Source: Mobula hypostoma (lineage: Eukaryota). From it: a stretch of DNA of 64,000 bases. This document shows, one piece after another, positions 4,251 through 54,385 of the stretch. Each line of letters begins with the position of its first letter. Position 1 is the stretch's first letter. A program made the position numbers and the translations under genes. Under the pieces are notes generated by a model. That model was given only the letters and a program-made list of their open reading frames with translations. It did not search any database and was not told the origin of the DNA. The DNA lies in the NCBI RefSeq assembly GCF_963921235.1, contig NC_086097.1, positions 146,198,001 through 146,262,000 on the forward strand. The letters run 5' to 3'.

Positions 4251-4252
4251 AT

Positions 4253-5188
4253 CTAGTTTAAAGCCTCCCCAATAGCACTAACAAACCTCCCTGAAAGGAT
4301 ATTGGTCCCCCTCTGGTTCAAGTGTAACCCGTCTCTCTTGTACAGGTCCCACCTGCCCCAGAAGAGGTCCCAATGATCCTGAAATCTGAAACCCTGCCCC
4401 CTACACCAGTTCCTCAGCCACTTGTTCCTCCTCCAGAGCATCCTATTCCTACCCTCACTGGCACCTAGCATAGGTAGCAATCCTGAGATTACCACCCTGG
4501 AGGTCCTGCTTTTCAACTTCCTACCAAGCTCTCTATACTCACTGTCCAGGACCTCTTCACTCTTCCTTGCTATGTCATTGGTGCCTATGTGCACCACGAC
4601 ATCTGGCTGGTCACCCTCCCACTTCAGAATGTCATGCAATCGATCAGAGACATCCTTGACCCTGGCACCTGGGAGGCAACAAACCATCCTGGATTCTCTG
4701 TCACGACCACAGAACCTCCTATCTGTACCTCTAACTATCGAGTCCCCTATCACTACCGCTCTCCTCTTTTCCCCCCCTCCCTTCTGCACTGCAGAGCCAG
4801 ACTCAGTGCCAGAGATCCGGCTACTGCAGCTAGTCCCAGGTAAGTCATCCCCCCCAACAGTATCCAATGCGGTATACTTGTTGCTGAGGGGAATGGCCAC
4901 AGGGGAACCCTGCTCTGCCTGCCCTTTCCTCTTCCCTCGCCTGACAGTGACCCAATTTCCTGTCCTCTGCTCCTTTGGCGTAACTACCTCCCTGTAGCTA
5001 CGATCTATAATGTCCTCATTCTCCCGAATGATCCGCAGGTCATCCAGCTCCTGCTCCAGTTCCCTAACGCAGTTTGTCAGGAGCTGCAGCTGGATGCACT
5101 TCTTGCAGGTGTCGTTGTCAGGGACACCAGAGGGCTCCCTGACTTCCCACATCCTGCAAGAGGAGCATTCCAACATCCTGCCTGGCAT
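4253..5188 (-). CDS. CR1 ORF1: zinc finger/leucine zipper + SGNH-type esterase (311 aa from first ATG)
   Basis: CSSC...CKKC, coiled coil VRELEQELDDLR, esterase blocks IGDSIVRG, HIGTND, DGLHLN; ATG at 5188. Confidence 0.92.
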   Translation of the reverse strand: MPGRMLECSSCRMWEVREPSGVPDNDTCKKCIQLQLLTNCVRELEQELDDLRIIRENEDIIDRSYREVVTPKEQRTGNWVTVRRGKRKGQAEQGSPVAIPLSNKYTALDTVGGDDLPGTSCSSRISGTESGSAVQKGGGEKRRAVVIGDSIVRGTDRRFCGRDRESRMVCCLPGARVKDVSDRLHDILKWEGDQPDVVVHIGTNDIARKSEEVLDSEYRELGRKLKSRTSRVVISGLLPMLGASEGRNRMLWRRNKWLRNWCRGQGFRFQDHWDLFWGRWDLYKRDGLHLNQRGTNILSGRFVSAIGEALN

Positions 5189-5433
5189 TCGCTCTACGCC
5201 TGACAATCTGAACAAAATACTTACTGGAACCTACCCTGGCCTGTGCCTGTCCTCGCCGAAGCCTGTTTGAGCCAAAGCCGTCCTACTCTGACTCAGTCCA
5301 CTCCAATGATGGCCGCTGTATATGGTCGTCTGCTTTTTAAACCTTGGCGCACTACGTCACGCGCCTGCGCAGTGCAGACCCTTCTCCCCGAGCAGTTCTT
5401 TAAAAGAAAAACGATTTTTCGACCCGAAATTCT

Positions 5434-24359: not shown

Positions 24360-24484
24360 GTGAGGAGAGATTGTTGTATCTGAGGACACCAAAGAGAAAT
24401 AACCAGCCACTATTGGAACAAGAGGTCATCCCTGTGGGAGAAAGGTCAGCCATCTATCTGTCTAAAGCTGAAGCTGGCCCCTGA
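24360..24484 (+). pseudogene. Probable degenerate coding exon of a XIRP1 LIM-type isoform
   Basis: Strong acceptor ctttttcttttgcag; reads (G)EERLLYLRTPKRNNQPLLEQEVIPVGERSAIYLSKAEAGP*; VGERSAIYLSK resembles the V-K-E-R-x-A-x-Y motif of XIRP2/LIMA1-type proteins. Confidence 0.45.
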
Positions 24485-31210: not shown

Positions 31211-32048
31211 TGGTCATCATGTGTTTAATGCTAGAGTCTCTCAGTACACATCAGTTCTAGAATATTCCAGAAATAGTTGTCATTGTTCTCTTAAGCTTTC
31301 CAATACATTTACTACATTCTGAAGGTCAGATGCATAAATATGTTGGAAAGATAACCATGCCCACAGTCACTGCAATTTTTATATAAATTTAGGCAGCCTT
31401 GACTGGAATATGTCACGTTCACTCTTTTTGTGAGCCTTGTTCATTGAGGAAAAGTCTAGGGGCAGCGCAAGTTTTAGAGCTGCAGCCTCAAAGCTCAGCC
31501 ATTCTGTTTCAATCCTGACCTCATCTGGTGTCTTCGTGGTGTTTTCCATCACCCCGTGACAGTGCAAGTCTTCTCCGACTGCACCTAGCTTTTTTTCGCG
31601 TCCCAGTGTTGTGTGACTTGCTTGGTAATTTGTCCCTGGTGTGGAGGTGAGTGGTGGATTCTAGAGGAGTTGATGAGGATGGGGGGAGAGCATAACAGGA
31701 TGAGTTGGTGGTCAAGGTGGGTTCAATGGGTTGAAGCAGCTGCTTTTGTGTTGTCTGACTTTTTTAATAACTTGCTGTGCTGCTTTCTGTAATGTGAGGA
31801 TGTTCTCCTGAGTTTTGATAAAGCTGAGAACTGTGTGCTGTGCATTGATGCTCTTCTCTCGCCAACTTACTTTCCATGTTTTCTGCCAACACCACTAGTG
31901 AAAGGTTCAATAATTTTTCTTCTGCAAATCCATTTTAAGTTGTTCATAACTAACCATTTGAATTACATTTTGATTACCACTAAACCACACTGCATGAAGC
32001 AAGTGCCCTTGCTGATGAATCCTCACCTATAACCTTGTTTTACTAAAG

Positions 32049-35000
32049 ATGGCTCGGAACATGGATAAGATCCGATCATCGGAAGTGAGCCAGACCACGG
32101 AGGATGAATTTTTACCACCACCACCTCCTGATCTGCTTGAAGCTTCCACCAAGCCAGATGTAACAATGAAAGAGCAGACTCAAAAAATCTTACCCCCTCC
32201 ACGTCAGACCTTTGTCAAGTTCCATCAGCAACGGCAAATTAATGAATTGAAGAGGCTGTATAAGCACATGCACCCAGAGCTAAGGAAAAATTTGCAGGAG
32301 GTGGTCACTGAGGATTGGGCAGAAGTGCTGAATGCTGAACGCGTGGCTGCAGACTTAACAACTGGTGTCCACGGCAACAGTGATGCAGCACTTCAAACCG
32401 AGGTCCAGTCCATGCGCTGGATATTTGATAACTGGCCACTGGACACAATTGGAGATCACCAAGCTACTAAGAAGATGAAGGAAGAGGAGGCCATCCTCAG
32501 TGGAGATGTGAAGAGCACATCATGGAAGTTTGAAAACCAAACAATAGATGCCATCAGTTCCCAGCACTCTGAATTTTCTGCAAATTCCAGTGTTGCAAAA
32601 GAGCAAACAAAGGGTGATGTCCGCACAGCTTTGTGGCTGTTTGAAACTCAGCCAATGGATTCCCTGAATAAAATGTACTCCAAAGACAATGATCTACAAG
32701 AAGCAGTTCTGAAGGAACCATTACAAAAAGGAGATGTCAGAGGTACCAAGCTATTATTTGAAACTCATCCGTTGAGTGACTTGGGACGAAGCAACTCAAT
32801 GGAAGAAAGCAGCTTATTGCAACTGCGTTCAGAAGTACAAGAGGTGAAAGGGGATGTGAACAGAACCGTGAAGCTTTTTGAAACAGAGCCACTGTGTGCC
32901 ATTCGTGATACTGCCGGCAATATTCACCAGATCAAATCTATCTGCAGAGAAGAAATCCAACAGAGTGGTAATGTGCAAAGCACTCGGTGGCTATTTGAAA
33001 CACAGCCCCTCAGTAGCATTAACAGAGATTTCTCAAGGATGAAAATTATTCGAGGCATCTCCCTGGAAGGGACACAACAGGGGGGAAGTGTTGGCAAAAA
33101 GCGATGGCTCTTTGAAACACAGGCCTTGGACACCATCAAAGAGCAGACTGAGGAGTCAGACAGTAACATCGACGTCAGGGTGATAGAAGGAGGAGATGTA
33201 AATCAGAAATGCTGGCTTTTTGAAACTCAACCTCTTGACTCATTAAAAGAAAGTTCACCTGAAGAGCTATCTAAGGAACCAGTAATTGGAGGTAATGTGA
33301 ACTCTACTCTTTGGTTGTTTGAGACTCAGCCAATGGAAGTCCTGAAAGACAGCTTTGAAGTTAGCCAATTGAAAAGAGTTATTACAGAAGAAGAAAAGGG
33401 AGATGTGAAGCATAAGGCTCATGTGTTTGAAAGCTGTTCTATAGACAGCATCAACAAAGAACAATGTGACACTTCCAAAAGCAGTGAAGATACATTGGAG
33501 ATACAGAAGGGAGATGTCAAAGCTTACAAGTGTCTTTTTGAAACACTTCCCCTTGATTGTATTAAAAATTCTGAAGAAATATTAGTGGGGAATCATGTAG
33601 AAGTCTTGGGTGGAAATGTAAATGAGAACAGAGTTCTCTTTGAAACTGTCCCCCTTTATGCTATCATGGATGGTGCAGGCCACTGTCATCAAGTCAAGAC
33701 AGTAAGCCGAGAGCAAGTCATTAGTGGAGATGTCAAACACTATAAGTGGATGTTTGAAACCCGCCGCCTGGATCAGTTTGATGAAAGTACACAAAATGTG
33801 GAATTGGTTAAAGGCATCACCAAAGAGGAGATCCGATCCAACAACATGGAGACAACAAGGTGGCTATTTGAAACACAGCCGCTTGATGTAATCCACGCTA
33901 ATGTCAACAAAACAGAAAATCAGGGCTCTGAAAGGGAAGATTTAGTGAAAGGTGATGTGAGGACATGTAGGTGGCTGTTTGAAACACAGCCAATGGATGC
34001 TTTGTATGAAAAAGCTGAAGTTAAGCAAGACTGTGAAATGCAACCGAAAGGTGATGTCAAATCATACACCTGGCTCTTTGAAACACAAGCACTGGACAGC
34101 ATCAATGAGAATGAAGAGCAACACCTGAAAGTCCACACCATGCAAATGGATGATGTTAAAGGGGTTGATGTGAAGACTAAAAGATATCTGTTTGAAACAG
34201 AACAATGTGGAAATCTTGCTGGGGAATTTGATGCAGCTCAGAACATGAGGTACACAAGTGAAGTGGACATCCAGTCTGGGAAGGTGTCAAGAGTGAAAGA
34301 AATTTATCAGAGCACTTCACTCAGTGAAATAGGCGACACAGAAGAGAAGAGAAATAGCTTCACATCCTCAGAAGAGGATGGCACACAGCCGGGATCGGGC
34401 TGTGTACACAAGTTCACTTGGCTCTTTGAAAATTGCCCAATTAGCTCCATTAAAGAAACGCCTGAAGAGGCAATACCCAAGAGCACAATCACTGACGTAA
34501 AGGGGGGCGATGTTGGTGGCAAAAGGTTTGTTTTTGAGACCTATTCACTGGACCAAATAAAAGAGGACACTGATATGAAGGAATTGCATTCAACAAGGGA
34601 AGAAACTAATGCCAAGGGTGATGTGAAGTCATGCACCATGCTGTTCGAAACACAACCCCTCTATGCACTTCGGGATAAGGAAGGCCAGTATCATGAAGTT
34701 ACTACAGCAAAGAAAGAGGAAATCATGAAGGGTGATGTAAGAGGAACCAGGTGGCTCTTTGAAACAAAACCATTGGACACAATCAGGCCAATGGATGAGG
34801 TATTTGTGATCAGAGCTGTCACACAGGAAGATGTGCACAAAGGAGATGTGACAGCAGCTCGATGGAAATTTGAGACCCAGCCTTTGGATTCAATCAGAGA
34901 TGAAGCACAGCCAAGAATAAAGGTAGTGGATGAGGTTCAGGGAGGAGATGTTCAATCAAACAAGCAACGCTTTGAAGGGCAACAAGCAAGCCAGAGATAT

Positions 35001-38000
35001 GTGAGGATGGTTAGTGTCAGTGATGTTCAGAGTGGAGATGTCAGGACATCAACTTGGCTGTTTGAAAACATGCCCATTGACTGTTTGAAGGGAGAAACTG
35101 AAGAAACCACGGGTACGACGACAGTCCAACGAGAAGATATACAGAAAGGGGATGTGAAGAGATGTACTTGGCTGTTTGAGTCCCAACCACTGGATAGCCT
35201 AAAAGATTCAGACTTTTCAATTGACAAAGAAACCAAGGAGGAAGTGACTTGTGCAGATGTAAAGACTACAACATGGTTGTTTGAAACAACACCTTTAGAC
35301 ACATTCATTCTTTCACAATGTAGCACAGAAAGCACCAAGATGACAGAACAAAATATCCGTACAAGCTTGGAAACCCTCATCAACTCTGGAGCCATCAAGT
35401 CAAAGGGACTTATTATTGAATCAAGTGAGACAGGCATTCTAAAAATGGCCAAATATCAACTGATGAGTCAGAATGATCCACATATTCTCAAAGAAGAAGT
35501 TATAGGTGGAAACATGCAGAGAATTCTGATGCAGTTACTTCAAAGGAAGGAATCCCTTTATTCTGAAGGTATCATGCTGAAGGAAGATGAAAACGGAAGG
35601 ATTTCTCAAAGTAAGATTCAGCTTTTTGGCCAGTCAGGAGTTAACATTAATGAAAAGATTGTTAAAGAAGAAAGCACTCATACAATTTCTAGCTTTTTAA
35701 TGGAAGACAGTAAAATGAAACAAGGGATTTTGATTCAAGAAACCGACAAAGGAATTGCTCAGATTACCATCTATTCTCTTGTTAACCGGCCTCAATTTGA
35801 GGAGGTTGAAAATGGGACAATCAAAGGAGATGTAAAGTCTACAATTAATAGTCTTCTTGCTTCAACTCAGCAGCAGACTGCATCAACAGTAAAACGTGAG
35901 AAAAATGAAAGAGGAAATGTACAACTTTACACAACGTGCATTGAATCTGGGACACTGGACTATCTCAAAGGCCATCAGGAGGATTCTGATGATCCTGATG
36001 TTTCCTCTCAGGAAAAGGAGATTGTACGTGGTGATGTTGAAGGTGCCATAAGAAACCTAACAGAGAGCAGAGGCCAAATTGAAAAGTCAGTTGCTGATAT
36101 TATACCAGGAGATGTCCAAGGAACCAAAAAATACTTTTTAACAGAAGCACAGCGAGGCCAATGTGTTACTCAGAGAGATGGTGCATTTGATGCTGATGTC
36201 AGTTTTGCTCATCAGACCTTTGGGCAGGCTGCGAATGCAGGATTAAAAGACGAAATTGCACCTGGTGATGTTAAAACCAAGATGCAGTCACTGGACAATG
36301 TAAAATACCAAACAAAAATCCTGGATATGGAACATATTCCTCGCGGTAATGTGAAGGACCCGCTGCAGGAGTCAATATGTGATAAGAAAGAAGCAAGAGT
36401 AAAAGAGTGTACAGAATCCAGCTTTTGCTCACGAAGTGAAGGCTCCATCAGAGTTTCTAAGATGGGTGCAGAAAATGCCACAGGTCAGGACCTTCAGACA
36501 GCAATGGAGAACCTCAGAGAAGTTACTGCCAAAGCACATAGCATACAGCAGAAATCTAGGGTGCAAGAACATTTCCAGAGGAAATCACAAAGTACAGCAG
36601 AAGCTCCAGAACATTGTCACCAAGGCAATCAATTCAGGAATACGCTGGAGAAAGAGACAAAGAAGCACGCTCAGATCTCCACACAACAGCAAAGCAGTGC
36701 AGCATCAAGACATCAAGCAAGTGCCCATGTGACTGTCAAGCAGTACCAACAACTAAAGAGCCAACAGGATAGTCATCAGGTCAGTGCCTCTGTGGGAACG
36801 GAAGGACTTGTGGCGTTTGTGGCTTGCTCAAGTGAAAGTCAGAAATGTGAACACTTAACTGACATAGTTCAAAGCAGCAGAGGTGAGATGAGAGCTGCCT
36901 CAGAACAGATGCTGTCTCACGGTCAGCACTTGTTCAATACCTTAGAGAAGGAAGATCGGGCAGTAGCAGATCAGGAAATAATTGTCAAGGGCGACATAAA
37001 GTCAACTATAGAAGCTTTAAAGGATTCAGTGACAGAGCAAAGATCCATTGAGAAAGATGAGGTGGTCCGAGGTAATTTGCAGGCAGCTCTCCAATCCCTG
37101 GGAAAAGCTAATATGAACGTATCCAAAGGCGATTTTAAAGCCGCCATGATATATAGAACAGCAGGCCAGTCACATTCACGTGACCAAAAGAAGAGTGGTG
37201 TTAGAACTGTTTGTAATCAGATTTCACTACCACAGTCTGATGTTGAGTTTCCTTCTGCAGTTCCAGTGACAAAGTCCACTGTACCGTCGAACAAAGCTTG
37301 TGGCCATCTTCCAGTGGAAGGCACCCCTCTTCCTTTAAACCAGACAAGTCCACCTGCAGTGAAAAATCCAGCTTCGTCGCAATTTCCTCCACTACTTCCA
37401 CTCAAGACGAAGGAACAAAACATCGCAAATAAACCATCTATTGCACCAAAGCCACCTTCAATCCCTCCAAGACACATGCCAGTGCAGGGTGGGAAACCTA
37501 CTCTGCCTCCTAAACCAGAATATTTGCAAGTAATCCATGCTGTTCCAAGTCCACCCCCTCCACCAAGAAACTATGCATCAGTCATGCCTAAATCAAACCC
37601 ATTACCTCCAGTTGTGTGCAAATCACCTCCAGTAAAACCTACAAGAGCATCACTTCCTACAGTAACTACCACTCCATCAAAGTGTCAGGAAATGGAGCCA
37701 GAGAGGCAACAAGAACAGCTTCATTTGGAAGAAAAATCCACCACAATGCCTTCTTACACCACGGTAAAGAAAACTCCTTTGCAGTTGGCAGAGGAGAAAT
37801 ACAGGAAAGAAAAGGAAGGGCAGAGCAAGTTAAATGCGATGGTAACTCACCCATTATCAAATATACCACTGCAAGAGATGCAGCAGAGAGGAAGAAACTC
37901 CACTGGATGTCTTGATTACACCAACGTCTCCATGACAAGAGAACCAGAAGTGATACCTAACCAACAGAATGCTGCAGCGGAAGTCCAGCGGTTCGCACAG

Positions 38001-39794
38001 TCCTGTTCAAAAGAAAGCACAGCAAGCACTGAAATGTTTCAGGGAATGGTATCTGCTCCTCAAACCTTTGGTACCCAAAACAAACCAAATTCTACTCAAA
38101 TGGGCCTGCCGAACAACCCAGAAAAGAATCGGACAATGACCGAGGATAGATCTAATTTATCAAAGCAAGTTAAAACTGTGTCACCGACAACCTCTGCCAG
38201 GATCATTGCCCCACAGAGCTACCAACAAGCACAACTGAGTGCCGAGTCACATCACCGACAGCCAGTCAAAGCTTCGTTTGAACAATCAGAGTGTCAGACT
38301 GCCCAACGTCATGGGTGCTCCAACCAGCACCGGTTTAGTAACCAAGCACTAGCTGCAAATGACCAACAAGTGTTGTTGGACCAACAGCTGCAGCACAGCC
38401 CACGACCAGATGCAGTTGTCATGCGAGAGGGCCGACAACAATGTAAAGAGACAGAGGATGACCGCAGAAAAAGGTTATCTGTTCACAAGGAGGAGATAAT
38501 GAGAGGAAACGTGAAAGCAGCAATGGAGATCTTTGAAAACCTAAAGAAAAGAGAAGAATTGCAGAAGATATTGACCAGAGTTAAAGAATTTGAAGAGGAG
38601 ACTTTTAAAGTTGATGTGAAAGGTCTGAAGAGTTTATTTGAGAATGTGCCTGAGTGGGTGGTGCCTAAGAATAATGGGGTAAAGCAACTTAAAGCAGTTG
38701 ACAGCCGGAAGGATGAGATGCAGAATCAGCCCAGGATGGTCAAAGATGAAGCAGAAAGTTTGTCTTCAGTGGAACTTGTGTTTGAAGATCTTGAAAGGGC
38801 AAGTGCAGAGATAACGTATCTGAAGGAGCAGACATTGGCAAAGTTATTACATATTGAGGAGTCCATTAAGAAAGCCCTGTATTCAGTCTCCAACCTGAAA
38901 TCAGAGTCTGACATTGCAGGTCTCTCTGGTTTATTCGGAGAGTCACTGGGAGCTGCCACAAACTCCGCTACTCCTGGCAATATCAAGAAAATCAGTTTGG
39001 CCTCCAGCAAATCAAGCTCAGAGAACACCATGCAATTGAAAGAATATCATTCTCACAAAGAACAGTTAGAAAAGTCACTGGATCAAGCCAGGCCATCATT
39101 GGATATTCCACCTGTTTCCGCTCGTGTGGGCTCTCCATCATCTCCTTCCTACATTTCCATTGAATCAGCAGTTAGAAAACCTGCAGGTCCTTTGAAAACA
39201 AAATCATCTGCCTCACATCTTGACATTGAGTCCTTTTCACCCTCTCCTCAAAATCAAGCTGTCCCATCCTGTTCTGCAAAAGTGACAACCATTGATGATT
39301 GCAATGGTTTTTTTCTTTGCAATGGATACAAAAGTGCCAGCAAACAAACAGAGTTACCAAAACAACATTCGGTGCCAAGAAAGGAATTTGTGCAAAAAGA
39401 TACCAACAATGAGTTCATTCAAACAGGCCTAAAGGAAAGCAACATTGTTAAAGGGAGTGACAATGTGGCCAACTCACCTACAGGTTGCATCTCTCTGAGT
39501 GGATTTAAAACCAACGTTGTCGATAGAACTCAGAGCCCAGTGCCCCAGAGAAGCAAAAGTGTTGTGGAGTTCAAGACAGGCCCTGATGGAGGTGAAATAG
39601 TTGGTACAAAGACCATCATGGAAAAATATGAAGAAATTGATCGTTTTGGGAACAAAATTATCACGTCAAAAACCTCAACCACTGTCACAAAGCAGTCTGA
39701 GTCAACAACGTCATCCACATATGAAGTAGTTCAAGCACTACCTAGGTATGATGTTGTTGCTTCGCCCCTTCTTAATAGACATCTGCAGAGTTAG
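32049..39794 (+). CDS. XIRP1: Xin actin-binding repeat-containing protein 1 (2581 aa, single large exon)
   Basis: About 26-27 Xin repeats (GDV-x4-WLFETQPLD); N-terminal EVH1-binding [34 protein letters not shown] matches the XIRP1-type N-terminus; proline-rich region; conserved C-terminal block [17 protein letters not shown]...[12 protein letters not shown]. Confidence 0.93.
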   Translation: [2581 protein letters not shown]

Positions 39795-40670
39795 ACAAGG
39801 GCTGATGAAGATTCACGATCTAACATCGAGGAAGATGGAGGCTTGTTTCTTTCTATTGAGAATCCCAGTTCAGCGAAGAGATTAAAGTGATGCTGCAATC
39901 CTTTAACATACAACTACCACCGATCTAAGAAACACAGATGGGGAGAATAAAACGCATATTGAAACTGATAAATGAACAAAGTATGCATATAGTATGCAGG
40001 GTCAGCTTCTATGGAGATAGGTTAACGTGCTCATCCTTGGGCTGCCAAAGCAGAATCATTGCTAACAAAGGATCTATACTGAATGTCAACTTTTTGCAAT
40101 TGTCAAATTGAAACAAAAACAGTATCAACGTTCTAGAAAGGTATAGAAAAATACATCATCTGACTGATTAATGTTTGAGAGCCAGAGAACTGAGATTTAT
40201 TGAAAAATTTCCTTGTCCTCAGAGACTAGATTTGATACTGTGCTGAAGTTAAAATCTGTGGCATGTACTTTTAACTTTAATAAATGGAGTAAAACTGATT
40301 ATTTTGAATTAGCCACACATTATATACATCATCACCAATTTTTCTTTCCTCTCCATGAGAAAATTGAATTTGGTGGAGCTCTGGTGGCCAATTCAATATC
40401 ATCCATTTTATAGCATTTGAAAAAGGTGGAATTACCACATATATGTGACATAACTAATATTTCCTGTTTTTATGAAGACATAATGTTGTGCTCTGAATTA
40501 GATTACAATTATCCATTACTGTTCAATTTTTCTACTTACTTTTTCTCTAGTTTCTTTTGTACTTTAGTTGTACATTCAATGTATCAGCTCCACCAGGAAT
40601 CCCAAAGTCTTTTTGCTTTCAAACTGTTCTTCTTCTTTCCTGTTCTATTTTTATTCCCATAATTTGCTTT

Positions 40671-40676
40671 AATAAA
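40671..40676 (+). terminator. Candidate XIRP1 polyadenylation signal
   Basis: AATAAA followed by U/GU-rich sequence; alternative AATAAA at 39946 and near 40279. Confidence 0.35.
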
Positions 40677-42529
40677 CTTTTTAATATTTCTTCAGCTCTA
40701 TCTTGTTTTGGATATAATCTGTTTAAGGAATTTGTAGTTATTTGGGCTCTAATTTTAATGAGGCATTTTACATTGTTGTGTTGATCTGTAAAAATGAATT
40801 AATGGGATTGTAAATATTGAGAAACCAATTCTTCAGTAATAATCATCAAACAATGGAGGAACAATACTTGACCCCAGTGAGCACTCTAGGAGGGCAAGAA
40901 AATCAGCAAGGTTTCACTCTTCTTGCTATTCAGTGTCCCATTCTATATATAATACACAGGAACCCTCCATATCTACATTCAACTTCTATGCCTATGCTTC
41001 TATGTGAAAATTGGGACTTGATTTGAGGGTAAGATGATACAGCAGCAGAGGGGTTTAGTTTACTGTTAGAGAATACTATTTTCCATAATTGCACATGGAA
41101 CAAAACAATTGGTTAGTGTAATTTCTGTCTGTGAGTCAAAAGGTAGAGGGTTCAAAATATGTCCCAGAAAGCTTGGGGAATGGATATCAAAATTCTCCTG
41201 CTTAAATTTGAAATAGTAACCCACAACGATACATGCATTTGATGGGCTATGTGTTTTATGGGACTGTGGGATCTCATAAATTCTTCTGCCTTGAAGTACT
41301 ACTGTCCTAGCAGATGTGGAAAAAGGTGGTTATAGACACGTTTGAGAGATCTTTCCAGAAGTTCAAGCAAAAGCTAGTGGTACTTAAATTTAAATAGCAG
41401 CATTCTTTCACTCTTCTGAAGCTATAGTAGGTCATTGGGTATAGAGTGCCGTGCTGCATCATTACCTCGATCTTTAGTATATTGGAGTTAAACTCAACAC
41501 ACAGCTAAAGAGTTATGAAACTTCGTTCTTTGGATCACGAATCAATGCTAAATATATATTCAATTCTTTGAAATCCTCAACATATACACAATGCAATACC
41601 ACCTATTGTTTCTTCATTAAAAATGAATGAACATCTTTCTCAATATAATGGCCTGCATTTCCATGATCTGCAATACTTTGCAATTGAACCATTAATTGGA
41701 ACTCTAGCCTTTATTTTTCATACCATGTTATGCAACATTTTATGAAATAACCATTGAAAGTCGAAAAGCATCACCAACTGCACTATATTTATCAGCCACC
41801 TATCATTTCAAAAGGCATTTGTAAAGTGTTTCCTGAAAAAAAAAACCTAATTTTTATTTGAGTGAATTAATGCGTAATGTGAAAGTACTTTTCTTCTTCA
41901 AAGCAGTAAGGCTGTTAAACATGAAAGTCAGATGTCATACATTTATTGACTATCTATTACATGCAATGCAATTTAAACAAGAACATAAAGAGCCGTACTT
42001 AACAATAGAATCAGATAGATTGACGGGGGATTCAGTATTACAGTACTGAATTCAGTATCTTGGCCATGAAGTAACCTTCACAATTTGTATGTTTTTATAC
42101 ACTTATCTTATTTCTTCCATATGACAAGCCATATAAACCTGCATTAATTATGCAACCATTAAAATATAACTTCTGTTTACTTGAAACTGATGATAATACT
42201 TTCTATTTCCATGTTTACCAAGCTAATGGGATTTAAGTTATCTATAGTTTCACTCATTCTATATAATTTATATCATGCCAAATGAAACATAACTCTGTTC
42301 CTGTGTTTTATGTACAAGTACAAAAGAATAATGTCTCATGTTTCTTTGTAAAACTTACTGTGTGCCAAAAGTCCCATGTATCCTAATTTCCTCAGTTTCA
42401 TATTCCTGAATTTCAACTCACTTTCTTAAGACTTCTGGTCAAAAACTACTCTACCTCGGGCAACATGTTCCAGATAATCCACAAGACTCTTTGTTAAACT
42501 TCTATTATGTCTTCTTTTTCTTTTATTTT

Positions 42530-44854: not shown

Positions 44855-45034
44855 TCATCATCATCATCAGGTGCCATGCCATAGGCAAGGTTTCTGAGCC
44901 TGAGAAGCAAATCTGGCAGGGCAAAGCTCAGCATTAGATGGCCTTCTTCAGAAATCATCAGGAGATTACTAAACACCCCACCCCCTCTACTACAGCAGGT
45001 CAGACAAGAGGAATATGCTGCCCCTCAAATCTGC
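44855..45034. repeat. TSD-flanked insertion: (TCA)n tail + copy of 46502-46645
   Basis: TCCAGTCCTTCA at 44843-44854 and 45035-45046; 44891-45032 is a near-identical copy of 46502-46645. Confidence 0.85.
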
Positions 45035-45189
45035 TCCAGTCCTTCACCAAGCTGAAAAGGTGATCCTTCCTCATGGGGTTATCTTGAGTCAAGGATCACT
45101 TTATGAGATGTGGAAAGCAGTCACATTCTTCGGTAGTTTGAAGGGTAGTGGTCACTCAGTGTATGCTTTTGACAAAGGTCTTGTATTAG

Positions 45190-45309
45190 TTCCAGTCTCC
45201 AAGTAGGGAATTCTGTGCTGCACGTCAAGATCCAGTTTATCACATGGAATGCATGGCCACAGACAAACCTTTCTTGCTTCTGCTGCAAGCACTGTGGGCT
45301 CAAGTTGAG
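45190..45309 (+). pseudogene. Degenerate LIM-domain exon, first half (XIRP1 LIM-type isoform)
   Basis: After acceptor tattag: FQSPSREFCAARQDPVYHMECMATDK / frameshift / SCFCCKHCGLKL(S); phase-2 donor AG|GCAAGT. Confidence 0.8.
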
Positions 45310-46169
45310 GCAAGTGCTTTTAAAAGTAGCATTGATTTTACCATTAACCTCCAATATTACTTCATTTATCTAATTTCAAATCTTTCCAATAGAAATACCT
45401 TGATTTTAATATAAATTTCATAAGCTCCCCATTTCTAACCCTGTAGGATCACAAGAAAATATCTGATTGTGTGCTAAATATTTCTTAAAGCAATAACGTC
45501 CTTTTGAAAGGACTTGTGAAAGTGTCACAAATCCAATGATACATCACCTAATTGGCTAGAAAAACTCAGAGGGTGGAGCAGCATTCCAGCAGATTGTGTT
45601 GTTCCAGATTCCTACACCTGCAGTTTCTCTATGTCTCCATTGATGGAACATATGGCACACACATATTATCTAACAGTCAATGGCACACAGGTAGTAAAAT
45701 GGTAGTTTTCCATTTAAATAAAAAGATGATAAATTCTTTCTCATGCCCCTGCCCTGCACAATGACTAGTGGCTATTTCTTCCTTGTCCACTGCATGTGGA
45801 TGCCAATGACAAGTCCTCTATAACTGCTGCCACCTCCACCAACTATCTGCAGAAACCTAATGTCTTCTTTACATATCTCAAATTCAGTCATATTAGATGT
45901 TCCAGCTCTATTTTAATCTTAGTAGGAACAGTTCAGTCAGCTGCCAGTTTTTTACTTAGGCCAATTTTAATCCCCACTGAAGGTGATGAAGAATAAAATT
46001 TGATTACATGTTATTTGAGCTTCCAGCTAGAATTATCCTTAAACCACAACAGGCCAGGATAGAACCAATAGCTCTGACTCCCAAAGTTAAATTTAATGAG
46101 CTTTTATTTAATTAACACAACAGCACCTAACACTTTACTTTCTTTGTTGTAATGTAGGATGTTTTTCTA

Positions 46170-46242
46170 TTCCAACCTGGGGTCCATGGAGCCCTTGATT
46201 AATGGTAGGGGTCCATAGCATAAAAAAGGTTGGGAACCACTG
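46170..46242. mobile_element. Short hAT-like MITE
   Basis: Inverted termini ttccaacct ... aggttgggaa(ccactg); internal ggggtccat repeated twice; lies 8 nt before the LIM exon-2 start. Confidence 0.6.
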
Positions 46243-46250
46243 GTTTACAG

Positions 46251-46660
46251 CCTCCTTAATTTTGTGCCAGTACAGGATGAATTCTATTGCAGGGTTCACT
46301 ATGATAAACACAATTACACTGAAAACTTTGACCTTAATCTTTGTGAAGAACTTTTGCTATCAACAGATACTAATCTTTGAGATTGCAGCCAAGAAGAAAG
46401 TTATCTACAAACTGAGGTAAATGATAACTTAGAAACTGCAAAAGGGGAATTAGACCTTATGTCTAATGCCAAGCATGACAATTTGGAAGTTATGGGGAAA
46501 TTTTCTGAGCCTGAGAAGCAAATCTGGCACAGCAAAGCTCAGCATTAGATGGCCTTCTTCAGAAATCATCAGGAGATTACTAAACACCCCACCCCCCGTC
46601 CCCCACAGCAGCTCAGACAAGAGGAATCTGCCACCCCTCAAATCTTCTGATTCGGAATAA
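46251..46660 (+). pseudogene. Degenerate LIM-domain exon, second half + C-terminal tail
   Basis: After tttacag: (S)LLNFVPVQDEFYCRVHYDKHNYTENF..., TGA at 46378-46380, later (other frame) KLSIRWPS resembling the KLxIxWPP motif of LIMA1/XIRP2; AATAAA at 46903. Confidence 0.72.
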
Positions 46661-47299
46661 CTTCATTCATGTACAGAACTGCACAAATATTTAAATCAGT
46701 TCACTTGGGCAAGAGGAAAGAAGGAAGAACATCGACTCACAAAAAGAGACTGTTCAAACATACAAATATGAAATGCATTGCAGACAAACCATCTGGAGAT
46801 CAAAATGAAAACAAACATCCAAGACTTATGGAGCTAAAGGAGATGATTAAGTTGAATGATGCCACTGACCATATGATCACTAGTCTATAGTGAAATGCAC
46901 AAAATAAAGGTACAGTGGATTCCAGTTAATTGGGTCACTGGTTATTCAGGACAATTGCTTATTTGGTACAACTCCTAAAAAACAAAACAATTATCAAGAA
47001 AATATCTGGGATTCCTTTTGTTTATTTGGGACACTATGCCGCTTAATTGGGATAGATAACTGTCGTTGTACAGTTTCAAACTAGCATCATTCACATGCAC
47101 TTGTGTGGCCATTAGACACTACACTGTGCTTGGAGCAAACAGTTGTTAGGTAGTGTCAGTTGTGTAAACTTGTGTTAAGTTTTCCATTTAGGGTGATGGA
47201 CACTGATTCCAAAAGCAGAGCTTTTTGATAATTTTGTTTTTTTATTTTGACTTTAACAAATTTTCAGACCCTTGAAAGCACATGAAAGGATTTGACACC

Positions 47300-48415
47300 A
47301 GAGTCATAGGAAAGTGCAGCACAGAAACAGGCTCTTCGGCCCATCTTGTCCATGCCCAACCATTTAAATTGCCTACCCTCACCGACCTGTACCAGGACCA
47401 TAGCCCTTCATACCCTTACCATCCATGTATTTATCCAAATGTCTTTTAAATGTTGAAATCAAGCTCACAAGCACTGCTTGTGCAGCCAGCTCATTCCACA
47501 CTCTCATGACCCTGAGAGCTTGCATTTACCCTATCTATACCTCTCATACGGCTGGTGGCGTAGTGGCATCAGTGCTGGACTGCGGGGCGGAGGGTCCAAA
47601 GTTCAAACCCAGCTTTCCATCCGTGTGGGGTTAAAAGTTGGTGATCTCTTTGAAAAAAAAACTCACCCGGCAGAAGGCAATGGCAAACTACTGCTGTAGC
47701 TTGCCTCGTACCTGAATTCCAACTACGTCAGAACAGCATGGGAGGAAGTCATTCGCTACCCGGAAAAATTCCGGATGCGACCTACATTATTATACCCCTC
47801 ATAATTTTGTATATCTCTATTACATCTCCTCTCAATCATCTACGTTCCAAGGAATAAAGTCCTAACCTATCCAATAGTTTAATACAGCTCAGCTCCTCCA
47901 GACCCGGCAACATCCTTGTAAATTTTCTGTGTACTCTTTCAGCCTTATTTACATACATCTTTCCTGTAGATAGGTGACAAGAACTGCACCAGTACCTTAA
48001 ATTAGGCCTCACCAGTGTCTTATACAACATCATCATAACATCCCATCTCCTGTACTCAATACTTCGATTTATGAAGGCCAATGTGCCAAACGCTTTCTTT
48101 ATAACTCTTATCAGTCTATGATGCCACTTTCGATAAGTTATGCACCTGCATCCCTAGATCCCTTTGCTCTACCGCACTCCTCGGTACCTTACCATTCACT
48201 GTGTAAGACCTACTGGGGGTGTGCAATACCTCGCACTTGACTGCATGAAATTCCATCTGCCTTTTTTAGCCCATTTTTCCAGCTGGTCCAGATTCTGCTG
48301 CAAGCCATGATAGTCTTCCTCACTGTCCACTACACCCGCAATACTGGTGGCATCCATAAATTTGCTGATCCATTTAACCACATTATCATCTAGATCATTG
48401 ATACTGATGACAAAG
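47300..48415 (-). mobile_element. 5'-truncated degenerate CR1 nested in the Tigger remnant
   Basis: Peptides INDLDDNVVKWISKF, AFINRSIEY, FTRMLPGLE close to the intact CR1 ORF2. Confidence 0.88.
47549..47790 (+). mobile_element. tRNA-derived SINE nested in CR1
   Basis: A box TGGCGTAGTGG, B box GTTCAAACC, RTE-like motif gaaggcaatggcaaac; 13-bp TSD with one mismatch (47536-47548 / 47791-47803). Confidence 0.78.
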
Positions 48416-49929
48416 ATCGTTGTTGATATAGATGAGTAGCTGAAAAAAATTACCTTATTGGACCAAATTAAAAGCCATTCACCTAACACCACTCATCGTC
48501 AGCTGACAGAGGTAGCACGAGTGCTGAAATCTACAATTGCATGCTTGCTACATCTGCAAGATAAAGTGCAGGATGGATGGACATTACATGAACAATAACA
48601 TGGAACATCACAAAAACGAAAGTTTGAAGGTAGGAATCCAAATGTTGAAGAGGACATCAATCACTGGTTTTCCATTGTCGCTAGATGAACTGAGTGTATG
48701 TGTGTTCCAATATCAAAACAAAACAAGTCAGAGGAGCTAGCTAAGAAGATGATCAAGAAGATTTTAAAGGTTGGCAGTCCAGGTGAAAATGTTGGCACAA
48801 CAGTAATTTCAAGAAAGCACACGGCAAGAAAGATAGTGCAGTGTTGAAACACGGAAATATACAAAACTCCCCAACTTGCTTCAAAATGTTGGGCAGATAT
48901 CTACAAGCCAATGAAACAGACTATTTTTTTTTATTGTGACATGGTTCCGCTCACTACAAACATGCGACATTATCCAGTTCAAAGAAAGCAATGGATTACG
49001 TAATAGATTGATTATCTGCATTATGCATCAGTACTGATCTTGTTCATTTACAGTCAATCAAAAGAACATGGCAGCATACACTGCATGAATTCCTCTATCA
49101 ATAAATGTTAGCAGCTAATAGTTTTATATTACTGTAGGAGTGTTGCCAGTGTTCTATTTTTTTCTGTATTTCATTTAAATACATAATTTGTTACTCAGTT
49201 AAATAGCAGCTTGTCTTTCTTATTCCTTTTTAGCTATTTTCATGAAACTTTAGCTAAATGGGGTAACTGCCTAATTGGGCCAAAATGTACTAGTCCCAAT
49301 TGTCCCAAGTAACCAGAAGAATTTTTATAACTTTTTTTTTGGTTAGGGTTATTGACATTATGAAATTCAGATTTTATTCTTTGAAAATTTGTAAGAGCCT
49401 TTTAACGTTCTAGAATTAAAACAAAATGTAATGTATTGGATCTCAACAACATAAATAATTCTTCTGATGTGGGAGGACAATGATAGATTTAACTAGAAGA
49501 AACATACGAAATCCTCAAGAAAGTAAAAAAAAATTCAAGTTGTTAACTTGTTTCAAACAAGAAAACGATATTCAAGAAATCAACTCTAAAGACTGAAAAT
49601 GCAAACAATCCTCTTCAATGAATGGCAGAATTGAACAAGAACAAAAAAAGTCATATCTCCAACAGAACCTTCAGAATTAGTTCAAGTCAATGAACAACAG
49701 CACCATCTCCATTATGTTCTAAAGGAGGCCCTTGCCCCAAACCAGAAATATAATTCCCCTTCCCTTGCAGGTCAGGCGAGACTGTTTCCATCTGTGCTCA
49801 CAGTACAAGAAAATAAAGGAAATACTTTAACCTAAAGTTACTGAAGACAAAATTCTTACCAGAGTAACCTGGAATACGATGACTTCTAATTAGAAAGATG
49901 AATAATATTTGTTTTCCTCAGCCTGAGTT

Positions 49930-50260
49930 AGACCATAAGACATAGGAACAGAATTAGGCCATCTGGCCCAGCGAGTCTGTTCCATCATTCAATCATGGCT
50001 GATCCCTTTTTTTCCCCCTTCTCCTCAACCCCAGTTCCCTGCCTTCTCCCTGTAACCTTTGATGCCATGTCCAATCAAGAACCTATCAATCTCTGCCTTA
50101 AATACAGCCAATGACCTGGCCTCTCCAAAGCTGCATGTAGCAACAAATTCTACAAATTCATCACACTTTGGCTAAAAAAAATTCTCAGAATCTCTGTTTT
50201 GAAAGGTTCTGACCATCTACCCTATTTATGCCCATCATAATTTTTATAAACCTTTAAAAG
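49930..50260 (-). mobile_element. CR1 3' fragment (second subfamily)
   Basis: agaccataagacataggaacagaattaggcc end shared with 9823 and 55212. Confidence 0.75.
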
Positions 50261-50361
50261 GTCAAATTAGGCATGGATATTTGTGAAAAGTAATAGATTA
50301 AAACACTTACATTATTTTCCATCATCTTCTTTTAGGGAAACTTTGTGACACAGCGACAATA

Positions 50362-53300
50362 ATAGAACATAGAACATAGAATAGTACAGCACAGTACAGG
50401 CCCTTCGGCCCACAATGTTGTGCCGACCCTCAAACCTTGCCTCCCATATAAGCCCCCACCTTAGATTCCTCCATATACCTGTCTAGTAGTCTCTTAAACT
50501 TCACTAGTGTATCTACCTCCACCACTGACTCAGGCAGTGTATTCCACGCACCAACCACTCTCTGAGTAAAAAACCTTCCTCTAATATCCCCCTTGAACTT
50601 CCCACCCCTTACCTTAAAGCCATGTCCTCTTGTATTGAGCAGTGGTGCCCTGGGGAAGAGGTGCTGGCTATCCACTCTATCTATTCCTCTTATTATCTTG
50701 TACACCTCTATCATGTCTCCTCTCATCCTCCTCCTCTCCAAAGAGTAAAGCCCTAGCTCCCTTAATCTCTGATCATAATGCATACTTTCTAAACCAGGCA
50801 GCATCCTGGTAAATCTCCTCTGTACCTTTTCCAATGCTTCCACATCCTTCCTATAGTGAGGTGACCAGAACTGGACACAGTACTCCAAGTGTGGCCTAAC
50901 CAGAGTTTTATAGAGCTGCATCATTACATCGCATCTCTTAAACTCTATCCCTCGACTTATGAAAGCTAACACCCCATAAGCTTTCTTAACTACCCTATCC
51001 ACCTGTGAGGCAACTTTCAGGGATCTGTGGACATGTACCCCGAGATCCCTCTGCTCCTCCACACGACCAAGTATCCTGCCATTTACTTTGTACTCTGCCC
51101 TGGAGTTTGTCCTTCCAAAGTGTACCACCTCACACTTCTCCAGGTTGAACTCCATCTGCCACTTCTCAGCCCACTTCTGCATCCTATCAATGTCTCTCTG
51201 CAATCTTTGACAATCCTCTGCACTATCTACAACACCACCAACCTTTGTGTCGTCTGCAAACTTGCCAATACACCCTTCTACCCCCACATCCAGGTCGTTA
51301 ATAAAAATCATGAAAAGTAGAGGTCCCAGACCAGATCCTTGTGGGACACCACTAGTCACAATCCTCCAATCTGAATGTACTCCCTCCACCACCACCCTCT
51401 GCTTTCTGCAGGCAAGCCAATTCTGAATCCACCTGGTCAAACTTCCCTGGATCCCATACCTTCTAACTTTCTGAATAAGCTTACCATGTGGAACCTTGTC
51501 AAATGCCTTACTAAAATCCATATAGATCACATCTACTGCACTACCCTCATCTATATGCCTGGTCACCTCCTCAAAGAACTCTATCAGGCTTGTTAGACAC
51601 GATCTGCCCTTCACAAAGCCATGCTGACTGTCCCTGATCAGACCATGATTCTCTAAATGCCGATAGATCCTATCTCTAAGAATCTTTTCCAACAGTTTTC
51701 CCACCACAGACGTAAGGCTCACTGGTCTATAATTACCCGGAATATCCCTACTACCTTTTTTGAACAAGGGAACAACATTCGCCTCCCCCCAGTCCTCCGG
51801 TACCATTCCCGTGGACAACGAGGACATAAAGATCCTAGCCAGAGGCTCAGCAATCTCTTCTCTTGCCTCGTGGAGCAGCCTGGGGAATATTCCGTCGGGC
51901 CCCGGGGACTTATCTGTCCTAATGTATTTTAACAACTCCAACACCTCCTCTCCCTTAATATCAACATGCTCCAGAACATCAACCTCACTCATATTGTCCT
52001 CACCATCATCAAGTTCCCTTTCATTGGTGAATACCGAAGAGAAGTATCCATTGAGGACCTCGCTCACTTCCACAGCCTCCAGGCTCATCTTCCCACCTTT
52101 ATCTCTAATCGGTCCTACCTTCACTCCTATCATCCTTTTTTTCTTCACATAATTGAAGAATGCCTTGGTTTTCCTTTACCCTACTCACCAAGGCCTTCTC
52201 ATGTCCCCTTCTTGCTCTTCTCAGCCCCTTCTTAAGCTCCTTTCTTGCTTCCCTATATTCCTCAATAGACCCATCTGATCCTTGCTTCCTAAACCTCATG
52301 TATGCTGCCTTCTTCCACCTGACTAGATTTTCCACCTCACTTGTCACCCATGGTTCCTTCACCCTACCATTCTTTGTCTTCCTCACCGGGACAAATTTAT
52401 CCCTTACATCCTGCAAGAGATTTCTAAACATCGACCACGTGTCCACAGTACATTTCCCTGCAAAAACATCATCCCAATTCACACCCGCAAGTTCTAGCCT
52501 TATAGCCTCATAATTTGCCTTTCCCCAATTAAAATTTTTCCTGTCGTCTTTGACTTTATCCTTTTCCATGATAATTATAAAGGCCAGGGAGCGGTGGTCA
52601 CTGTCCCCCAGATGCTCACCCATTGAGAGGTCTGTGACCTGACCCGGTTCATTACCTAGTACTAGATCTAGTATGGCATTCCCCCGGTCGGCCTGTCCAC
52701 GTACTGTGACAGGAATCCATCCTGGACGCACTTAACAAATTCTGCCCCATCTAAACCCTTGGAACTAATCAGGTGCCAATCAATATTAGGGAAGTTAAAG
52801 TCACCCATGATAACAACCCTGTTATTTTTGCACCTTTCCAAAATCTGCCTCCCAATCTGCTCCTCTGTATCTCTGCTGCTACCAGGGGGCCTATAGAATA
52901 CCCCCAGTAGAGTAACTGCTCCCTTCCTGTTCCTGACTTCCACCCATATTGACTCAAAAGAGGATCCTGCTATATTACCCACCCTTTCTGTAGCTGTAAT
53001 AGTATCCCTGACCAGTAATGCCACCCCTCCTCCCCTTTTTCCGCCCTCTCTATCCCTTTTAAAGCACTGAAATCCAGGAATATTGAGAATCCATTCCTGC
53101 CCTTGTGCCAGCCAAGTCTCTGTAATGGCCACTACATCATAATTCCATGTATGTATCCAAGCTCTCAGTTCATCACCTTTGTTCCCGATGCTTCTTGCAT
53201 TGAGGTACACACATTTCAGCCCTTCTACCTTACTACCTTTACACTGTTTATTCTGCTTCTCTTTCCTCAAAGCCTCTCTGTATGTTAGATCTGGCTTTAC

Positions 53301-54385
53301 TCCATGCACTTCTTTCATTGCTCTATCGCTCTGGGTCCCATCCCCCTCGCAAATTAATTTAAACCCTCCCGAACCATGCTAGCAAACCTACCTGCAAGGA
53401 TATTTCTCCCCCTCGAGTTCAGGTGCGACCCATCCAATCTGTACAGGTCCCACCTTCCCCAGAAGAGATCCCAATGATTCAAAAATCTAAAACCCTGCTC
53501 CCTGCACCAACTCCTCAGCCGCGCATTCAACTGCCATCTCCTCCAATTTTTACCATCTCTGTCACATAGCACTGGCAGCAATCCTGAGAATGTCACCCTT
53601 GAGGTCCTGTTCTTCAGCCTTCTGCCTAATTCCCGAAACTCACACTTCAGGACCTCATCCCTCTTCCTGCCTATGTCGTTGGTCCCAACATGTATCATGA
53701 CTTCTGGTTGCTTTCCCTCTCGTACCAGGTTGTCATGCACCCGGTCAGAGACAGCCCGGACCCTGGCACCCGGGAGGCACCAAACCATGCGGGTATCCTT
53801 CTCACGTCCACAAAATCTCCTGTCTGCTCCCCTGACTATAGTGTCTCCAATGACAGCTCTCCTCTTCTCTGTCCCACCCTTCTGCACCACAGGGTCAGAC
53901 TCAGTGCCGGAGGCCCTGCCACCGTGGCTCACACCTGGTCGGTTGTCCCTGCCAACAGTATCCAGGATGGTAAGCTTATTATTCAGGGGAATGGCTACAG
54001 GGGTGCTCTGCACTACCTGTCTGCTCACCTTCGCTTTCCCCCCTCTGACTGTCACCCAACAACCTGCTTCCGACAGCCTAGGTGTGACTACCTCCCTGTA
54101 GCTCTGATCTATGACTGCCTCATTCTCCCTTATGAGTCAAAGGTCATCCAACTGCTGCTTCAGATTCCTTACACGGTCTTCCAGATCGCCCAGCCGTATG
54201 CACTTCTGGCAGATGGGGGAGAGGGGCGTTCCCCCAAGACTGCCACATCTCACAGGAGAGGCACATCACCGTCTCAGGAGACATTGTAAAAACTAACTGC
54301 GAGCGAGCTCATCCTCCGCCTCTTCTCATCGAAGCCTTTCGAGTCAAAGCCTCAAAGCTCCACTCCTTCACTGGCCCACTCACGC
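50362..54385 (-). mobile_element. Near full-length CR1, inactivated
   Basis: ORF1 esterase part 53354-54055 (zinc-finger part disrupted); ORF2 in three pieces (52668-53318, 52105-52731, 50430-52148) with frameshifts near 52680 and 52165; (TTCTATG)n tail. Confidence 0.93.

Follow-up and report, generated by a model that had tools for sequence, protein, structure and literature searches.

Probable remnants of a second, LIM-domain product of XIRP1 downstream of the intact Xin exon in a Mobula ray

The XIRP1 gene of the ray Mobula hypostoma very probably once encoded a second product, an EPLIN-class LIM protein, that is now dead in this ray. The window (a 64,000-nt stretch of contig NC_086097.1 in assembly GCF_963921235.1) contains what we take to be the last two exons of that product, both broken (exons A and B in Table 1), behind an intact Xin exon that the product likely skipped. 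The case is built on homology, on exon phases, on lesions in isoform-specific exons both 5' and 3' of the Xin exon, on an 11-nt frameshift shared with other organisms and on neutral substitution. An earlier note had already described the segments as dead exons of a Xin-skipping XIRP1 LIM isoform. This reading is borne out by intact orthologous gene models in horn shark, sawshark and teleosts, and by a tree.

The window carries a large exon with Xin repeats whose best matches are XIRP1 proteins, and it is assigned to XIRP1 on this basis. There is only one long open reading frame on the + strand (32019-39794; Pfam Xin on the large exon, E 1e-140), and the Xin exon is as intact as the earlier note had stated (Table 1). 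The encoded protein is 98.2% identical to an XIRP1-like protein of Mobula birostris, 92% to two stingray proteins, 83% to the sawfish protein and 71-72% to those of horn shark and sawshark. Most of the best 120 listed protein matches are named XIRP1 or XIRP1-like, and none is named XIRP2; the remaining ones are hypothetical, unnamed or, in the case of coelacanth, "LIM domain-containing". The acceptor AG of the Xin exon directly abuts the ATG (phase 0), so that the exon can be skipped in frame. In two presumed-RNA runs from two studies, deep or long contigs stop at about 40710-40750, shortly behind a candidate poly(A) signal, while DNA runs continue; this is a weak hint that Xin transcripts end there.

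Table 1. Features of the XIRP1 locus in the window (all on the + strand)
Feature	Position	Strand	Remarks
Upstream exon remnant, short isoform	24360..24484	+	tblastn of P0122/P0005, E 9e-7 to 5e-6; 3' end approximate
Xin exon coding sequence, intact	32049..39794	+	2581 aa, 23 Xin stretches
AATAAA, candidate poly(A) signal	40671..40676	+	would end the Xin transcript ahead of the LIM exons
Local 147-bp duplicate (92%) of 46502-46648	44891..45035	+	bears the 46513 frameshift
Decayed LIM exon A	45190..45309	+	starts in phase 0, ends in phase 2
Second zinc ligand = Arg (CGT)	45223..45225	+	sequence, alignment of relatives
11-nt frameshifting deletion, His ligand removed	45270..45271	+	position set from the letters of relatives
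GC donor, AG|GCAAGT	45310..45311	+	GT in organisms E and F and in three paralogues
High-copy short repeat just ahead of the exon B acceptor	46172..46242	+	read depth, loose contig ends
Decayed last exon B	46251..46878	+	second LIM half, eroded EPLIN motif; end approximate

Exon A begins behind the acceptor AG|45190, and the frame from 45190 reads FQSPSREFCAAR..., while the half of the LIM domain that reads CFCCKHCGLKL falls in the next frame. Exon B begins with the acceptor AG|C at 46251, where pyrimidines occupy only 9 of the 20 positions upstream of the AG. Both acceptors and the donor at 45310 are present in the sequence, and the two segments join in phase as had been proposed. The phases of exon A match those of the LIMA1, LIMD2 and XIRP2 paralogues in the same genome, and the intron between exons A and B (941 nt) has the same place and phase as in these paralogues.

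Several lesions disrupt this arrangement. The Arg codon that replaces the second Cys is confirmed. The spacing from ME to SCF is 22 nt rather than the 33 nt expected from the horn-shark model, so that the deletion removing the His ligand, previously put at about 11 nt, is exactly 11 nt long. The in-frame TGA at 46378 in exon B is likewise present. Three features had escaped the earlier note: a 15-nt in-frame deletion at 46305/6, inside the EPLIN motif; a frameshift near 46513; and the onward course of the remnant, with homology to the sawshark model reaching about 46878 and repeats from about 46911. The frameshift-aware alignment adds a TAA at 46658 and a frameshift near 46760. The motif KLSIRWPS, which the earlier note had compared to that of LIMA1 and XIRP2, is found at 46535-46558, but in a different frame owing to the frameshift near 46513, which had gone unnoticed. 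The 147-bp duplicate carries the 46513 frameshift and must therefore be younger than that lesion. It is located 155 bp upstream of exon A, directly after a high-copy repeat ending in (CAT)n. The contigs of another organism (B) break at the same places as this duplicate, and the duplication is probably common to organism B.

The read-through peptide (with X at the breaks) scored 53.0 bits with a LIM HMM, against 10.4 bits for the best of 1000 shuffles. The HMM was home-built from 21 LIM rows, one of which later fell among the teleost XIRP1-locus rows. By this profile match, the segment belongs by descent to the LIM superfamily, in agreement with the initial identification. When single exons or exon pieces were submitted to Pfam, none of the four matched LIM; these pieces are too short and too broken to refute the assignment. 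A functional LIM domain has the eight ligands C-C-H-C / C-C-C-H in one open frame. The window has C-R-(deleted)-C / C-C-C-H (two of eight lost), and its frame is interrupted by the 11-nt deletion, then by the TGA at 46378 and by breaks behind the domain. The EPLIN motif, scored as the 22 columns after the LIM domain in substitution for the motif table of Koch et al. 2012, is alignable but eroded, with 7/22 matches to LIMA1 of the same genome. The corresponding values are 13/22 for horn shark, 18/22 for sawshark, 15-19/22 for the teleost rows and 8/22 for sawfish.

The 11-nt frameshift in exon A is shared with five other organisms (B to F); together with organism A, these are probably stingray-like rays. 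In organism B, exon A aligns ungapped, and the only three gap letters within 44939-46203 are at 45725. Organism B also lacks seven letters somewhere in 46178-46561 (repeat or exon B). Organisms C to F (88-92% alike) were aligned on 45160-45340. The site of the 11-nt deletion is gapless in all four, and none has a listed difference at position 45223 (one reads CAT), so that both lesions, the frameshift and the lost second Cys, are older than the divergence of these organisms. Later, independent lesions are a TAA at 45238-40 in C, one additional nucleotide at the acceptor in D and four additional nucleotides in E and F. By hand count, 5 of the 28 listed substitutions in exon A are synonymous (neutral expectation 5.2-7.7), and an omega of 0.3 is rejected (P <= 0.004); the count is the unpolarised union of rows, with 1-4 differences per run lying outside the listed set. 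Exon A, the one exon covered by this comparison, has all the marks of a neutral pseudo-exon: a shared lesion, later independent lesions and a neutral substitution ratio.

This changes two points of the earlier note. The isoform had been described as being lost in this lineage. Given a frameshift common to five other organisms and the neutrality of exon A, this cannot be upheld; the loss is likely finished and old, not under way. The GC donor had been counted as a lesion. It is present, and judged by the GT of organisms E and F it is a derived state that arose late, after the frameshift. A GC donor with a consensus of the AG|GCAAGT type need not be a lesion.

The exons could in principle be used in the other frame. 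A phase 2 donor exists inside the Xin exon (AG|GTATGA at 39745/6), and splicing from there to 45190 would yield the Xin protein with a half-LIM tail that ends at the stop at 46378. That frame is open across exon A, the 11-nt deletion leads into finger 2, and the four ligands of finger 2 are intact. There is also a precedent, as a passage in PMC10259482 describes that the LIM exon of mouse XIRP2 is read in overlapping frames in the long and short isoforms. However, the frame contains a stop in organism C (45256 G>A, giving TGA), and in E and F it is hit by the 4-nt shift and a TAA. Of the 24 listed changes, 7 are synonymous in it, with a neutral expectation of 5.3-7.0. By our own estimate, an open stretch of about 27 codons is common by chance (roughly 1 in 4), and the presumed-RNA contigs pass 39745 unspliced. 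We thus consider such a use very unlikely.

Presumed-RNA contigs from two runs also cross the donor of exon A (44921-45437) and the acceptor of exon B (45684-46632) unspliced, and the 45309-46251 joint is absent among the 15 joints listed, beside which there are 664 more; as contigs drop rare forms, no weight is given to this. One presumed-RNA contig ends at 45311 with three unaligned letters, which are too short to carry meaning.

That the remnants belong to XIRP1 is indicated by gene models from other fish. A horn-shark model of 445 aa (P0122, XP_067887537.1) consists of XIRP1 upstream exons and an intact LIM domain, without Xin repeats. Its accession directly follows that of horn-shark XIRP1 (XP_067887536/37/38). 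It maps in order to 24362-24475, 45190-45307 and 46249 onward in the window, so that its exons flank the Xin exon on both sides. The N-terminal extension of Heptranchias XIRP1, when compared to shorter proteins, gave two matches, both from horn shark, and in the Heptranchias model (P0005) the homologous upstream exons are joined to the Xin exon. The medaka protein XP_078791616.1, which bears the name XIRP1 isoform X7, combines the N-terminus with the LIM domain and the tail and lacks Xin repeats. The same LIM domain was found by HMMER and look-ups in models from sawshark (1292 aa) and sawfish (146 aa), and together with the same N-terminus in models from eel, mormyrid, catfish, sardine, stickleback, wrasse, clownfish and medaka. 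This survey covered the best 150 of 2322 HMMER matches, 17 of which were looked up. All intact copies of the LIM isoform, in every species, are automatic gene models.

The comparison with sharks and bony fish that the earlier note had called for thus finds intact LIM exons in horn shark, sawshark and medaka, and all eight ligands are retained in the horn-shark and medaka models. The horn-shark and medaka models and the sawfish model (XP_051879284.1) are orthologous to the window in exons and architecture, but have open frames. The suggestion that ancestral XIRP1 made a LIM isoform is supported by these models; what does not hold is its restriction to the past, as the isoform is present in shark and teleost models and, by these, appears to be alive in both groups. 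Word-based searches for the short XIRP1-LIM form in cartilaginous fish gave only horn shark among the matches listed (120 of 206), and no LIM model from stingray, skate or electric ray is among the named rows, which are some of the best 150 matches. The rest of the sawshark tail (1000 aa) was not found in the 97 kb downstream, where 34 search windows gave one weak match on the wrong strand; with so fast-evolving a tail, little weight attaches to its absence.

A tree of 36 rows pairs the window with sawfish P0287 (100/100; 80% over 61 columns) and then unites this pair with horn shark and sawshark (100/98), away from LIMA1, XIRP2 and LIMD2. The stem branch of the sawfish-window pair is long (0.79). 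The sawfish model keeps its ligands, the His included, and the frame, starts at an internal Met and stops just past WPP; we infer that it adjoins XIRP1. The shark and teleost XIRP1-locus rows do not form a single clade in the free LIM tree, so that the case for their orthology is made by the position of the genes and by the similar N-termini. A tree constrained to unite them is not rejected (p-AU 0.08; 15 rows vs 20, with gecko left out and one row added after the tree was seen), which falls short of proof.

The upstream exons of the short isoform are decayed as well. The remnant at 24360-24484 carries a TGA (24482-24484) where the horn-shark model has Ser. Beyond the window, a 54-nt upstream exon retains its AG and GT ends (contig positions 146187509-146187562), and a further remnant (146188630-146188807) is preceded by a frameshift and stop codons. 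The 200 kb upstream contained neither a recognisable first coding exon nor two of the middle upstream exons, and the last upstream exon, expected to end at phase 0 before 45190, was not found in the genome. The phases allow for skipping of the Xin exon: the junction behind the upstream part reads IK|FQS in the horn-shark model and IK|MSQ in the Heptranchias model, and the acceptors at 32049 and 45190 are both of phase 0.

Alternatively, the segment might be independent of XIRP1 and lie behind it by chance, either as a decayed copy of LIMA1, LIMD2 or XIRP2 or as a processed pseudogene. The horn-shark and sawfish models are indeed named "LIM domain and actin-binding protein 1-like" by NCBI, apart from the Xin protein, and the exon phases equal those of all three paralogues. 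A processed pseudogene has no introns, however, and this segment has retained one. Intact LIM exons of the LIMA1, LIMD2 and XIRP2 types (names assigned from the tree) are found elsewhere in the genome, with GT donors and all eight ligands, and the window groups with none of them. Moreover, the LIM model has its N-terminal exons on the far side of the Xin exon, and in models from Heptranchias, gar, turtle and bird they are joined to it. A chance neighbour is therefore highly improbable, and the segment is best attributed to XIRP1 itself.

That the lesions are assembly errors in an intact isoform has practically no probability left, even though the only run to confirm the TGA at 46378 (no differences over 44956-46227 and 46211-46596) may stem from the sample used for the assembly: a second sample of this organism yields a contig with no differences over 44921-45437, the deletion is common to five other organisms and the 46513 frameshift occurs in both local copies. 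For exon A, assembly error is refuted by the second sample and the five other organisms.

The order of events in the decay can be reconstructed tentatively. Ancestrally, as the gene models imply, short 5' exons would have had two splice partners, the Xin exon or, with this exon skipped, the LIM exons. Constraint may have been relaxed in the common ancestor with sawfish, judging by the EPLIN motif (8/22 in sawfish vs 18/22 in sawshark). The Cys-to-Arg change and the 11-nt deletion would have followed before organisms A to F split, and the GT-to-GC change, further stops, indels, the local duplication and repeat insertions would have occurred afterwards. At present, at the DNA level, the LIM route gives a frameshifted product with two of the four finger 1 ligands gone, and its exons are drifting. 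With an ATG and a stop of its own, and a likely poly(A) site ahead of the LIM exons, the Xin product would not suffer from this decay. The persistence of intact LIM exons in LIMA1, LIMD2 and XIRP2 is the probable reason why the loss was tolerated.

The layout resembles that of XIRP2, where short exons flank a large Xin exon and skipping yields a product with a LIM domain and a C-terminal tail, as described in sections of PMC10259482 and PMC3280289. This short isoform is known from mouse and from zebrafish xirp2a/b. The LIM exon phases in the window equal those of XIRP2 in the same genome. Unlike in that system, the gene here is XIRP1, and the LIM product is destroyed. Zebrafish xirp1 is portrayed as one large exon (in part of PMC3280289), and the three human Xin variants are attributed to intraexonic splicing (in part of PMC3810769). 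The human EPLIN class, as given in a portion of Koch et al. 2012 (PMC3305314), comprises LIMA1, XIRP2 and LIMD2 and no XIRP1 product. As in this class, the window has a single LIM domain, behind which the 22-residue EPLIN motif region can still be aligned, and further on a counterpart of the K-L-x-I-x-W-P motif of LIMA1, XIRP2 and the shark models. In contrast to the members of this class, it has a broken frame, has lost two of eight ligands and matches the motif at only 7/22 positions.

Isoforms can be lost by decay of alternative exons (pseudoexons) in live genes while the other product stays under selection. The XIRP1 case is similar in that isoform-specific exons have gathered frameshifts and stops. 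It differs from usual pseudoexon decay because the two XIRP1 products share almost no coding sequence, so that a whole protein is lost; in form, it comes close to a unitary pseudogene that surrounds a live exon. No publication on an XIRP1 LIM isoform, or on its loss in rays, was found outside subscription papers and supplements, and LIM, EPLIN and shark are absent from the main text of a paper on Xin evolution (PMC2478706). The isoform is already contained in automatic gene models, often under other names, and the second product of XIRP1 looks overlooked.

We think it rather likely that XIRP1 is basically a LIM gene of the EPLIN class in which the Xin exon forms a skippable cassette, and thus a fourth EPLIN paralogue of jawed vertebrates beside LIMA1, LIMD2 and XIRP2. 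The product would be alive but undescribed in sharks and teleosts, where it would escape mutations in the Xin exon. Erosion or loss would have happened repeatedly: step by step in rays, with relaxed constraint in sawfish and a dead product in the present lineage, while a gecko model has it in degenerate form and the human EPLIN list does not include it. This changes the picture of XIRP1 as a single-exon gene, and a two-product layout like that of XIRP2 appears ancestral to both genes. The short form of XIRP2 matters in the repair of hair-cell stereocilia (in part of PMC10259482), and given this role, a fish XIRP1 counterpart would be worth testing. The xirp1 truncation made in zebrafish lies in the Xin protein (part of PMC3280289) and would likely spare the LIM isoform, if zebrafish has one. 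In ray XIRP1, nature has supplied a knockout whose lesions can be read in their order; the mechanism of decay is itself ordinary.

A few minor observations concern XIRP1 and its surroundings. The gecko model (P0020) fuses the Xin exon to a degenerate LIM domain (residues 2521-2573; Pfam E 3e-4, under the cut-off), in which the His ligand is replaced and the EPLIN motif is reduced to 6/22. An independent decay in lizards is possible; the gecko model is ab initio and flagged as unverified. The XIRP1 protein of coelacanth (P0014) is named "LIM domain-containing protein" yet has no LIM match, which suggests that the gene name derives from a LIM isoform. In the window, a TAG closes the Xin protein about 30 codons short of the end reached in the sawfish, electric-ray and shark models (window 39792-39889), which extend to a conserved end of the VxFGN type. 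The Hypanus model terminates at the same place as the window protein, which points to a short C-terminal loss common to stingrays. Related LINE copies with endonuclease and reverse-transcriptase remnants are found at 1314-5230 and 47305-54215, the latter set shortly behind the broken last exon.
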